Program-made: the position numbers and the translations under genes | Shown here: positions 21,103-32,529 of the stretch, piece by piece | Numbering within the stretch: the stretch's first letter is position 1 | How the letters are laid out: the number at the start of each line of letters is the position of its first letter | Assembly (NCBI GenBank): GCA_964016885.1 | Contig: OZ024743.1 | Span: 252,464,001 to 252,528,000, forward strand | DNA: 64,000 bases | Source of the DNA: Eledone cirrhosa | Lineage: Eukaryota | Direction: 5' to 3' | The notes under the pieces: model-generated | Databases searched by the model: none | What the model saw: only the letters and a program-made list of their open reading frames with translations | What the model was told of the DNA's origin: nothing

Positions 21103-21153
21103 ACCTTTGAGAAGGCTTGCTACAAATAAGTTCGAAACACGAGTTGTCATGGT
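21103..21153 (+). ncRNA. Type I hammerhead with UUGAGAA (U3-A8) core
   Basis: ACCT-TTGAGAA-GGCTTG ctacaaa TAAGTTC-GAAA-CA cgagt TGT-C-ATGGT; GUC site 21146-21148; downstream ~50 nt homologous to the tail of the 30.6-kb element. Confidence 0.65.
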
Positions 21154-21277
21154 CAGGTTTATAACTTCCTTTATACCCGCTCTGCTCCTTCTCATGCATA
21201 GAGTACTATCCTGAATTAAAATTTTGCCACTGTATAGTTTCAACATAATTAAATTTATATATATATATATATAAAAT

Positions 21278-22541
21278 TTACTTGTCTAAGACTAAAGTTC
21301 TAATATGTAGGAAGGAGAATAGGGCACTGGTCCCATCTGGGAAATGGCCATGCTCAGTGTGTAGGAAAGGAGTAGGCAGAAACTCCATTGTATGTCCCAA
21401 ATGCAAAGTATGGGTACATAAAAGATGTAGTGGGATCACAGGTAAGCTAACTAAGAATATAGATTTTATATGTGGCCGGTGCTCTGGTGCAATAAGTAGC
21501 AGCAGATGCCCACAGAATACTAGCTTATTCCATTGCCCAGATGGTTCTATAGAAATAGTGGACACCTTACGTTACCTGCGTGACAAAATCAGCAGAGGTG
21601 GAGGGTGCTCTGAAAGTACAGTAGCTAGAGTCCGACCGGGATGGAAAAAGTTCAGAGAGTTTATACCACTATTGGCCGCTAAAGGTTTCTCTCTAAAAAT
21701 GAAAGGCAGGCTGTATGATTCCTGCATACGAACAGCGATGTTACATGGCAGTAAGACATGGGCCTGGTGTGCAGAGGATCTACACAGACTGGAGAGGAAC
21801 GAAGCTTGCATGCACCGTTGGATGTGTAATAGTAATATACGCAAACGGCAAAGCATAAATGAGCTAAGTGCGAAATTAGGAATAAGTGGGATCAGATGCT
21901 GTTTACTCGAGAAGACTACGTTGGTATGGTCATGTGATGCGCATGAAAGACGACAGCTGTATAAAAAAGTGCAGGGCGATCAAAATAGACGGTAGCTACG
22001 GAGTAGGCAGACATAGAAAAACTTGGGACGACTTGATAAATTCCAACCTCACACACTTACACATCTCCAAGACAATGTCACTGGACCGAGATCTTTGGCG
22101 CTACACAGTAATACAGAAGATCCGCCTTGCCTAAGTACAAAGCAAAACCTACAGTCAGTAGGCACCTCTTAACCAAAACACATCCCCGTCCCACTACCCC
22201 TACCCTCACGCTATCTATACCACCCCTTTCGATGTAAAGTTATATTGGTACCACAACATCCAGTCCTAAATAAATGAGATCGCGTAGGTGTCACGACAAA
22301 AAAACACGCAGTCCATGCTGTAATGTGGCCGTGTAGGTAACACGGTAAAAACCTCCCAGTCCACATTATAAACGTGGTTGGTGTTAGGAAGGGCATCCAG
22401 CCATAGAAAACCCACCAGACAGTCCTATATGAGCAAGACAACCAATCTTGCCTCAAGTGGGACAATTCCCGTCCAGACCCATGCTAACGTGGAAGATGGA
22501 CGTTAAACGATGGGGATGATGATGATGATGATGATGATGAT
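21278..22541 (+). mobile_element. RTE-clade LINE 3' part with complete PHD-type finger, 3' UTR and (GAT)n tail
   Basis: KTKVL...CSVC..CPKC..HKRC..CGRC...IVDTLRYL...ARVRPGWKKFRE...RRLRWYGHVMRM...GRHRKTW. Confidence 0.9.
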
Positions 22542-22603
22542 ATACATACACACACATACATGTATATGTGTATGTGTGTATATATATATATATTTTTTTT
22601 TCA

Positions 22604-22668
22604 CTTTAGTCCAGAAATAACCGTAGAAACAGCTTGAGCTCTGCCGTCGGGGTCATACTTTCTCCTAT
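22604..22668 (+). mobile_element. Short fragment of the U3-A8 hammerhead element (3' half of ribozyme only)
   Basis: TTTAGTCCAGAAATAACCGTAGAAACAGCTTGAGCTCTGCCGTCGGGGTC aligns with 32481-32530; sits between TA tracts. Confidence 0.75.
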
Positions 22669-22944
22669 ATTTTTTTATATATATATATATTTTTATATAT
22701 ATATATATATATATATGAAAAACATGGGGAGAAGAATACTGCATGGTTGCGCATGGATTAATGCGATGAAATACCAATGATCGTTGGCAAATCACTGATG
22801 AGGGACTAATTTTATTATATATATATATATATATATATATATATATACAACCCATGCTAGCGTGGAAGAACGGACGTAAAACAGTGATGATGATGATGAT
22901 GATATATATATATATATATATATATATATACATATATTTATGTC

Positions 22945-23262
22945 AGGTTGCTTTTCAGTGCTACTGGTAACATGTAACCCACTACAACCTATGCATGTTA
23001 GAGTTATCAGCAACTTGACGGGCAACCTCACCAAGCTTGCTTGGCAAGGAGGGTGGTTTTGGACACCCTGTGGGATGAAAAACCAAACCCACCAAAGGGT
23101 CGAGTAACTCAGAAGAGTCAACAGCCATCCAATAAAGATTTTATTTCTTTATTTATTTATTTATTTTCATTTTCATTTTATTCTTTTGTGGAGCGAGAGT
23201 CCCTAGCCTTCATAATGACATCTCTCTAGGAGAAGGTCACTCTGGGATAAAACCTGTGACTT
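22945..23262 (+). mobile_element. Probable RTE-type 5' UTR remnant
   Basis: CTAGGAGAAGGTCACTCTGGGATAAAACC motif; related sequence in reverse orientation at 37720-37800. Confidence 0.4.
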
Positions 23263-29400: not shown

Positions 29401-30012
29401 ACCCAGTCCGGTAAGAGTTATGAGTCTGTCATCTCTATACAAGCCCTTCTGAGAGCAGGAAACTTTTCTATTAGTTTCTGGAGTATATACGAGCCTATCA
29501 GGTCTGTAGCCCTGCTGAGTTGGTTGCTCCCATACTCACATCAAAGCATGATGGGACCCTTTTTATCCAGGTGGAGTTTTCAACAAAAAAAAAAAAATAA
29601 ATAAAAAACAAACAGGACTATCTTCATGGCATGCAGAATTATGTCAATTACCTGATCAACTTCCACAATATGAGTTGATGGCTATTTTCATTAGTTTCCA
29701 CACACACACTTGACTTAAGAGCTCAAATAACATTCCTCAATGACTATGGGTGCCTCTCTAAGAAATCAACACCAATTATTAAAATATGTGTGATAACGAA
29801 ATGCCATATCATCATCATCATCATCATCACCTTCATTGTTTTTACATCCAGTGATCCATGCTTGCATGGGTTGGATGGGTCCTTTTCAGCATAGCATCTC
29901 TCCACTCACCATATTCCTTCATCATCTCCTCTGAGTTTGTATATATTTATATAAATTTACAGCAGAGTGTGGGATGGGAGGAGGTACTTTGTGACAGTAC
30001 AATAGCAACAGT

Positions 30013-30243
30013 GAGACAGCATGGTCTTATCTGATGGGTAGAGACAGCATTGGTCTTATGTGAAAGGTAGAGACAGCTTTGGTCTTATCTGATGGGTAGA
30101 GACAGCATTGGTCTTATGTGAAGGGTAGAGACAGCATTGGTCTTATGTGAAGGGTAGAGACAGCTTTGGTCTTATCTGATGGGTAGAGACAGCATTGGTC
30201 TTATGTGAAGGGTAGAGACAGCATTGGTCTTATGTGAAGGGTA
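30013..30243. repeat. 29-bp minisatellite, 8 units
   Basis: Unit GAGACAGCATTGGTCTTATGTGAAGGGTA with variant ..TATCTGATGGGTA; order A-B-A-B-B-A-B-B. Confidence 0.97.
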
Positions 30244-30712
30244 GCCAGTTTGTAACTCATTATTAGGGAAAGTTTCGGGGTCGATAAAATAAAGTACCAG
30301 TAATGCACTGAGCAATTGCTGGCCTTGTGCCAAAAATAAAAAAATTATTAGGGAAAGACATTAAATTACACTTGTCCTTTTCCTTGGCAGTGGAATAAAT
30401 AATGAGAGAGAGAGATGAAGATAAAGTGAAAGATTAAGGCAACTATAAGAAAGGTGAAAAGAAAGATGATTGTGTGTATATATATATATATATATATATA
30501 TATATATATATATATATATATATATATATATATGCATATATATATGTGTATGTATATATATATATATATATATATATATATATATATACATATATATATA
30601 TATATATATATATATATATAACGAAGGAAATGTGGTAAGGAACCAGGTGGACCATAACGCACCAAAGTACTCAATACTTGAGGTAGTAGAGTGGGTAATA
30701 GGAACCAGTAAG

Positions 30713-30806
30713 ACCCCGACAGCTGAGCTCAAGCCGTTTCGACGGCTAATTCTGGACTAAATGAAAATTTATCCTGGTATTTAAATAGCCGATCTTCTCA
30801 AGGGGT
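30713..30806 (-). ncRNA. Type I hammerhead with U3-A8 core (left arm)
   Basis: Exact reverse complement of 32436-32529. Confidence 0.8.
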
Positions 30807-32435
30807 AATTCCATATATGGTCAAAGTGATTGTCAAAAATCAGTAGTAATTCTGTGGTTGCAAATTAGTAGGGGAGATGGTGGCTAAACCTGCCAGTAGG
30901 AGAAAGAGGGGAGGGGGTGGAGTAGACCCAATCAAGCGTTGGTAGTGCCAGCTACAGCTGGGCATGAGGTCAAAGAAGATACAGGGGAGGGGGAGGGGGA
31001 GGAAGTCGGAACGGTAGGTAGAACAATGGGGGGTAGAAATAGGAAAGAAAAAAAAAAAAAAATACTGAGAGTGAAGAAAGGCAAATAAGTGTAAAGAAAA
31101 GTAAAGTAAATTAAATTCTACGACCTAGGTGTCAGGCTATTGTTAGGCGAGAATAAAATAAAGAAAGAAAGAAAGAAGTAAAAAAATAAATAAATGAATA
31201 AATAAGGAAATAAGTAAGAGAACTAGTTACTGCATGGAAATAAGTAAGAGAACTGGTTACTGCATGTAAACATAGATTGCGTAGGACTTACCTCGCCCTC
31301 AAACCCCATAATGACCCGGGGGGGTAGACTAGGGCTATAACACCCCAGTTGCCGATTTTGCAATAGGTAACCCCTGCTTGCCAAGGAAGACGTAAGATCT
31401 TCTTTGTATTCTTTTATCGCTTCCTTTATTTCCTTCCCCCCTCTCCCCTTTGTCCTTCTACCCCAGCTCTTCTCCTTTGTCGGCGTCTTTTCTCGCCCAC
31501 CCGAGGCTGCCCTTTGGCCCCATGTAGCCTTAGTACCCCCACCCCCCCTCCCATAGTCTTTGATAGATTTGGCGGACTCCGCCCTTTATAGCAGCTGGCT
31601 TAGACCCCGGATACTTTCCCCCTTTTTCCGACCGCTCCCACTATTCTCTGTGCCCTCTATATTTCTTAGTGGCACATGCCTTATTTTTTCGTTTCAGTAT
31701 TTCTTGCTTCGCTCTTCTTCTGGGCGGGGTGGATTCTGAATTTATTTCTCCGTATTCTACCTTTATTTCGTACGAACTTTCATGTAGCTTGTTTTAGATC
31801 TTTTAGAGTTAGCATTAGTATATATTTTTCTCGGGACTCAGAATTATTATCTCGTACAAGTTCACTTTGCTGCACTGGGTCGTTGCTGGCCCGGGATGGA
31901 AACCTTTATTGTTTATTTCGTGGTAGTCTCTTTAGTATTTTGGCCCCTTTTGTTGACCCGTCACCGTATCATTTACGTACTTATACCTCTTAAAAGGGTC
32001 CTTGCCTTATCCGTCCCACCTAGTTCTCTTACTTATTTCCTTATTTATTCATTTATTTATTTTTTTACTTCTTTCTTTCTTTCTTTATTTTATTCTCGCC
32101 TAACAATAGCCTGACACCTAGGTCGTAGAATTTAATTTACTTTACTTTTCTTTACACTTATTTGCCTTTCTTCACTCTCAGTATTTTTTTTTTTTTCTTT
32201 CCGATTTCTACCCCCCATTGTTCTACCTACCGTTCCGACTTCCCCCCCCCCCCTCCCCTGTATCTTCTTTGACCTCATGCCCAGCTGTAGCTGGCACTAC
32301 CAACGCTTGATTGGGTCTACTCCACCCCCTCCCCTCTTTCTCCTACTGGCAGGTTTAGCCACCATCTCCCCTACTAATTTGCAACCACAGAATTACTACT
32401 GATTTTTGACAATCACTTTGACCATATATGGAATT

Positions 32436-32529
32436 ACCCCTTGAGAAGATCGGCTATTTAAATACCAGGATAAATTTTCATTTAGTCCAGAATTAGCCGT
32501 CGAAACGGCTTGAGCTCAGCTGTCGGGGT
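32436..32529 (+). ncRNA. Type I hammerhead with U3-A8 core (right arm)
   Basis: ACCCC-TTGAGAA-GAtCGGCTA...TAGCCGTC-GAAA-CGGC ttgagctca GCTGT-C-GGGGT; all three stems pair; GUC site 32522-32524. Confidence 0.82.

Follow-up and report, generated by a model that had tools for sequence, protein, structure and literature searches.

A hammerhead ribozyme motif with a U3-A8 core pair was found in a stretch of 64,000 nucleotides from Eledone cirrhosa (GenBank assembly GCA_964016885.1, contig OZ024743.1, positions 252,464,001 to 252,528,000, hereafter named the window), which is AT-rich animal DNA abundant in microsatellites and broken retroelements. The motif sits at the 3' terminus of a retroelement that was inserted head to head and has lost its 5' part, likely a Penelope-like element of the Hydra clade, whose RNA it is predicted to cut after GUC. 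The coordinates of all copies and of the insertion carrying the best preserved ones (family 1) are collected in Table 1.

Hammerhead anatomy with U3-A8 in the core

A sequence-only reading of this DNA had pointed to three motifs with TTGAGAA in place of CTGANGA, each with GAAA and a GUC site, and both inspection and a descriptor scan confirmed them. The U3-A8 type I anatomies in the window are exactly three, located at 32441 (+), 30801 (-), and 21107 (+), and the loose descriptor gave three hits as compared with a mean of 0.17 (maximum 1) over 30 block shuffles. In arm B of the family 1 insertion, helix I (ACCCC/GGGGU), the core UUGAGAA, a long helix II, GAAA, helix III, and GUC follow one another in order. 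The core nucleotides U4, G5, A6, N7, and A9, together with G12, A13, A14, A15.1-U16.1, and H17, are present in both arms of family 1 and in the 21.1 kb copy, and the Watson-Crick pair 3-8 is U3-A8 in all four window copies that contain the 5' core. The motif is a full type I hammerhead anatomy with a U3-A8 core pair.

The minimum free energy (MFE) structure of family 1 is the hammerhead with its three helices, helix I being open, and this holds for the motif alone and with its flanks. The pairs flanking the core have pair probabilities of 0.6-0.96. The helix II arm comprises 54 nt, and helix III consists of 5 bp with a 9-nt loop, being neither absent nor the short palindrome by which minimal hammerheads are recognized. 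Its palindromic character is nevertheless retained, as helix III with its loop gave -24.1 kcal/mol for the self-duplex versus -3.8 kcal/mol for the hairpin. C3-G8 is a pair of the active fold (PMC3884650), and the U3-A8 swap has several natural examples and is active in vitro (PMC3088659). In the Poseidon element, the single mutants C3G and G8C abolished the ribozyme and the double mutant partly restored it (PMC11167929). Since U3-A8 preserves this Watson-Crick pair, an intact family 1 copy would likely cleave, either as a monomer that uses its 5-bp helix III or as a dimer formed via the palindromic helix III and loop.

Table 1. Family 1 insertion and further U3-A8 copies in the window
Feature	Position	Strand	Remarks
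Type I hammerhead, family 1, arm B	32436..32529	+	U3-A8 core 32441-32447; GAAA 32502-32505; predicted cut after C17 at 32524
Identical hammerhead, inverted arm A	30713..30806	-	U3 at 30801; C17 at 30718
Likely C-terminus (E..CxH) of Hydra-clade GIY-YIG endonuclease	31250..31327	+	Last 25 codons and stop of open reading frame (ORF); profile match, contig extensions
Non-coding 3' region (3' untranslated region/pseudo-LTR)	31328..32435	+	About 1.1 kb from ORF end to hammerhead; no ORF of note
Inverted 5'-truncated second arm (A) with long 3' end	30622..31226	-	Tail of about 76-80 nt, absent from arm B
30-bp duplication joining the arms head to head	31206..31270	.	Junction repeat
(TA)n microsatellite, 3' end of arm A	30477..30620	.	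Likely target site
(TA)n microsatellite, 3' end of arm B	32541..32576	.	Likely target site
Family 1 half copy	22598..22668	+	Starts inside helix II/loop II, without 5' half of core; E=1.9e-10
Family 2 copy, U3-A8 hammerhead and tail	21103..21255	+	Hammerhead 21103-21158; core 21107-21113; C17 at 21154; decayed, truncated just 5' of helix I
Second family 2 copy	57383..57505	-	UUGAGAA retained; U3 at 57499; perfect 6-bp helix II; GAAA lost

The 21.1 kb motif had been placed at 21103-21153; it is present there, although C17 (21154) and the helix I 3' strand (21155-21158) fall beyond that end. For this copy the hammerhead is 9.1 kcal/mol less favorable than the MFE structure. The 57.5 kb copy, 72% identical to the 21.1 kb copy (E=1.4e-11), falls outside the type I core through the loss of GAAA. 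The copies at 21.1, 22.6, and 57.5 kb have likely lost activity. Helix I of the 21.1 kb copy departs from that of family 1 by two double-sided changes, and the claimed alignment of the 21.1 kb and 30.7 kb downstream flanks holds, its score being reached by 0 of 2000 shuffles. When 5112 window slices were compared by their separate best sites, this flank ranked third, after the 30.7 kb copy itself and a relic at 35.2 kb. Against common ancestry, the 30.7 kb flank showed no significant match to the 57.5 kb copy (129 of 2000 shuffles), and the 21.1 kb copy was not listed by nhmmer at E<=1 with the 30.7 kb copy as the query. Considering that the flank test is significant for the 21.1 kb copy but not for the 57.5 kb copy, the sequence comparison makes a shared origin of the two families likely, though not proven. 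The relic at 35173-35262 (-) is weak and resembles the tails of both families (E=0.02 and 0.16), with no recognizable core.

The insertion carrying family 1

The segments 30698-31226 and 32020-32544 form an inverted duplication with 98.7% identity over 529 bp, identical over the hammerhead yet different at several other places. The motifs at 30.7 and 32.4 kb are arms of one insertion and were counted once, so that of the three family members proposed at the outset only two are independent. Flanked on either side by (TA)n, the insertion occupies roughly 30622-32540; from 31250 the long arm extends outward on the plus strand, and the short arm starts at 31226 and extends outward on the minus strand. 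In public sequencing runs, contigs of four of the 22 listed runs (X1, X3, X6, and X7) aligned to 30622-32019, under four organism labels, and covered most of the 3' region at 31328..32435 piecewise. The long 3' end was joined to (AT)n in all four runs and the short end in three of them, among the 24 of 352 loose-end rows listed.

The identity of the element was traced through the end of its ORF. A profile of the GIY-YIG C-terminus was built from 63 of 150 relatives of another window relic at 5954-6316, and the ORF tail ranked second of 3218 six-frame segments (E=0.04), the top one being the relic's own continuation. In X3, X6, and X7, the 30 loose letters before 31250, translated by hand, are in frame and stop-free and end in L-N-K-K-D or L-N-K-K-N, differing silently between the runs; the commonest form at the same place among relatives of the relic is L-N-K-R-S (81 of 198). 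The alignment of these relatives displays CxCX5C, CxxC, E, N, and CxH, which are marks of the Hydra clade (Craig et al. 2021, PMC8557442). The element itself probably carries the C-terminal N..E..CxH of the GIY-YIG domain, judging from the last 25 codons and the in-frame loose ends in three of four runs. For the Hydra clade, insertion into (TA)n, copies that are both inverted and 5'-truncated, and a tail confined to one end are also described (PMC8557442); all three features recur here, the tail measuring 76-80 nt rather than 30-40. Judging from the ORF tail, the (TA)n flanks, and the recurring 3' ends, the insertion is likely the 3' end of a 5'-truncated Penelope-like element of the Hydra clade.

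For the formation of the insertion, it is proposed that the GIY-YIG endonuclease of the element would nick a (TA)n target and that reverse transcription would be primed on both strands of the target, at one or the other of two positions 3' of the hammerhead. Priming at two sites on both strands would leave two arms and two 3' ends. As the motif and the tail remain joined, the copies would derive from RNA uncut at the hammerhead site, and the hammerhead may serve in a tandem array to free the element RNA from a longer transcript. In the Poseidon element, reverse transcription from two internal sites defines the tail and insertion uses uncut RNA (PMC11167929).

Variation of the core and alternative explanations

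U3-A8 had been proposed as fixed in a whole lineage, and the public contigs contradicted the fixation. The following variant statements rest on 40 of 79 difference rows, in which variants are unphased and depth is no copy number. U3 is the majority at position 3, accounting for 76% of the depth in X1, the deepest run, and for all of it in X7. C occupies the position in 43,201 of 178,839 X1 depth units (24%, from 29 contigs); X3 and X6 have it in a single contig apiece, and X7 in none. A G8 partner for C3, which would have support equal to that of C3, is absent from the listed rows, so C apparently faces A8. The X6 tally holds one T>C place, which is taken by 31766, so the C3 contig of X6 lacks G8. 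The loose-end letters of a subfamily in X1 and X3 keep A8 with a varying position 7. Together, these contig letters point to a possible C3·A8 subfamily. The expectation of a non-canonical consensus was borne out all the same, with U3-A8 as the majority core here and also present in the second, diverged family.

The two commonest variants improve pairing. The variant at 30721 turns a helix III G·U into G-C in 72% of X1 depth and occurs in all four runs, and that at 30749 adds one pair to helix II in 36% of X1 depth. X3 and X7 each include contigs identical to the window over the motif region. In X1, the 5' half of the motif has roughly one sixteenth of the depth found over the 3' half; the statements on the core therefore apply to a small part of the matching copies, and the remaining X1 matches are truncated like the 22.6 kb copy or diverged. 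Separately, the summed contig depth of X1 falls about 12-fold within 17 bases at 30749-30766, where the 22.6 kb half copy also starts, and many copies may stop inside helix II.

Several observations weigh against a cleaving hammerhead in a Hydra-clade element. Besides the 24% of X1 depth that reads C3, apparently opposite A8 and with no G8 among the listed rows, position 10.2 is altered in 30% of X1 depth while the listed rows contain no change of its partner, and both variants suggest that the core is not strictly kept. The folding energy of family 1 is no better than that of shuffles (z=-0.25), and the Rfam hammerhead models gave no match at the gathering score in the window nor at E<=10 in 30500-33000. 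The canonical-core hammerheads of the window are likewise missed by Rfam at the gathering score, so this blank is not specific to U3-A8. The support for the ORF from the window alone is weak (the E value above), a Pfam search of the 25 codons gave no hit, and all copies obtained fall short of full length. Moreover, family 1 departs from the published Hydra elements in its long helices, its 3' region of 1.1 kb, and its tail of 76-80 nt.

The strongest rival accepts the same Penelope-like element and holds that most family members have a hammerhead that has lost catalysis, with U3 and A8 drifting and the motif carried along. It draws on the C3 contigs without a visible G8, on that of X6 in which G8 cannot be present, and on the 16-fold loss of depth toward the 5' half, of which the 22.6 kb copy is an example. 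Insertion would also not need cleavage on this view, and hammerhead mutants inserted undiminished in vitro (PMC11167929). None of the 40 listed variant rows, however, hits G5, A6, A9, GAAA, U16.1, C17, or helix I; the commonest variants strengthen the helices rather than weaken them; and the same core occurs in two families that differ widely elsewhere. We regard this explanation as unlikely, though worth keeping in view. A related and tentative proposal is that the Hydra-clade family is mid-way through a compensatory core swap, with an amplified, mismatched C3·A8 subfamily beside the U3-A8 majority, in a clade with C3-G8 in every described member, which is possible but appears doubtful. If true, C-G, C·A, and U-A would form a natural series on which to test how a catalytic pair is swapped and if cleavage is required of Penelope hammerheads at all.

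A non-autonomous retrozyme or a SINE-like repeat carrying a hammerhead, with no coding origin, is very improbable. The insertion does consist mostly of non-coding sequence, and most of the contig depth comes from short 3' pieces, but the window contains no tandem array of hammerhead units, and a same-strand ORF ends 1.1 kb upstream of the motif and continues in frame in three runs. A chance motif or a fold-back assembly artefact deserves hardly any credence: the heptamer TTGANAA by itself occurs 78 times in the window and the arms are nearly identical, yet the excess of full-descriptor hits over the shuffled expectation largely refutes a chance motif, the arms differ at several places, their two 3' ends recur in independent runs, and the unchanged X3 and X7 contigs also tell against this explanation. 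The hammerhead of a likely Hydra-clade Penelope-like element remains the favored explanation.

Relation to known systems and other elements of the window

U3-A8 hammerheads have been reported from Cercyon Penelope elements of Schistosoma mansoni, as minimal motifs with about 1,300 hits that a canonical descriptor missed (Cervera and De la Pena 2014, PMC4209133). Like family 1, these are type I motifs in a Penelope pseudo-LTR, and they are mostly lone copies with some pairs on opposite strands. Unlike family 1 with its 5-bp helix III and 54-nt helix II arm, they have no real helix III and need dimers, and they belong to a different Penelope clade and host. The CUGANGA descriptor does miss family 1, as the sequence-only reading had foreseen. 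Its wider suggestion of a whole lineage with a fixed U3-A8 core escaping CUGANGA-based searches was already published for a Penelope lineage (PMC4209133), and U3 is not fixed here. U3-A8 Penelope hammerheads overlooked by CUGANGA descriptors have thus been on record since 2014, and the present family is a further example and no new kind of system.

Another close system is the Hydra clade, which includes Hydra-1_Obim of Octopus bimaculoides and shares with family 1 the C-terminal GIY-YIG N..E..CxH, (TA)n targets, a near-3' hammerhead, and inverted truncated copies (PMC8557442). Further marks of the clade are an RT with RWK and DKT motifs and the CxCX5C linker. The published Hydra hammerheads have CUGANGA cores and short helices; all 26 Hydra rows of File S2 read CUGANGA and were found with the canonical descriptor. 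Family 1 has its hammerhead at the near-3' place expected for Hydra, with U3-A8 instead of the canonical core and with long helices, and it is unlike the listed hammerhead of Hydra-1_oBim when compared by eye. Exact searches for short motifs of the window's cores in the supplement of PMC8557442 gave 0 and 0 matches. Perreault et al. 2011 (PMC3088659) described the same U3-A8 covariation and, in the text available, did not present it as an amplified animal retroelement family. Metazoan non-LTR retrozymes are animal repeats that contain type I hammerheads and have a relationship to Penelope pseudo-LTRs (PMC7229834; bioRxiv 10.64898/2026.07.22.740005); they are tandem non-coding hammerhead units, whereas the insertion here is inverted and includes an ORF end.

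No U3-A8 or C3·A8 hammerhead in Hydra elements or cephalopods was met in a literature search that covered few subscription papers. What is new is the first U3-A8 core met in the Hydra clade, the unusually long helices II and III, and the possible C3·A8 subfamily. The U3-A8 Penelope hammerhead is now met outside blood flukes, in another clade and group of hosts, and the result 'no hammerhead' from a CUGANGA search such as that used in PMC8557442 can be a false blank. In contrast to most Penelope hammerheads, family 1 has a stable helix III that would permit an assay of the monomer, and the apparent C3·A8 subfamily offers a natural control for whether ribozymes matter in transposition. The family motif had 0 matches in viral contigs, and two single-protein queries found no loci of Hydra-type proteins there. 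The only motif match in metagenome contigs (L001) was attributed to chance, with 71% G+C and no hammerhead context.

The window contains further Penelope-type remains. A broken Hydra-type Penelope ORF with a CxCX5C linker and GIY-YIG lies at 5895-7025 (-) and has 2743 relatives at E<=0.001; no hammerhead was recognized downstream of it by the descriptors used. Two of eight looked-up relatives of the GIY-YIG relic came from Argonauta hians, and a search for relatives of a second GIY-YIG relic in the window gave no hit. At 13490-14083 (-), a canonical minimal hammerhead, its core at 13527, comes after a GIY-YIG relic (Pfam E=0.007); this segment is the 3' end of another Penelope-like element. 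At 49850-50090, two type I hammerheads with the canonical core CUGAGGA, at 49947 (-) and 50006 (+), stand head to head with palindromic helix III within an inverted repeat, an arrangement suggestive of a further inverted insertion of Penelope type. Two more hammerhead-like motifs with the canonical core, long arms of helix II, and a short palindromic helix III occur at 16652 (-), in a 360-bp inverted repeat, and at 40549 (+).

A Naiad Penelope-like element, with an N-terminal endonuclease and a C-terminal RT, was ruled out for the family 1 insertion, whose ORF ends in an endonuclease-type CxH tail, and the idea of Naiad hammerheads overlooked owing to U3-A8 was dropped for this element on the same ground. 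Some Naiad consensus 3' ends in the supplement of PMC8557442 nevertheless show hammerhead-like half cores with long spacers, and a relaxed re-scan might reveal hammerheads in Naiad elements described without them. Frameshifted ORFs of non-LTR retrotransposons were located at 8349-10929 (+), 18396-19549 (-), 21249-21995 (+), and 52559-55928 (+). The first of these has RT relatives with up to 68% identity, and the named relatives of a LINE protein of the window are from a jellyfish and from shrimps, with 50-56% identity.

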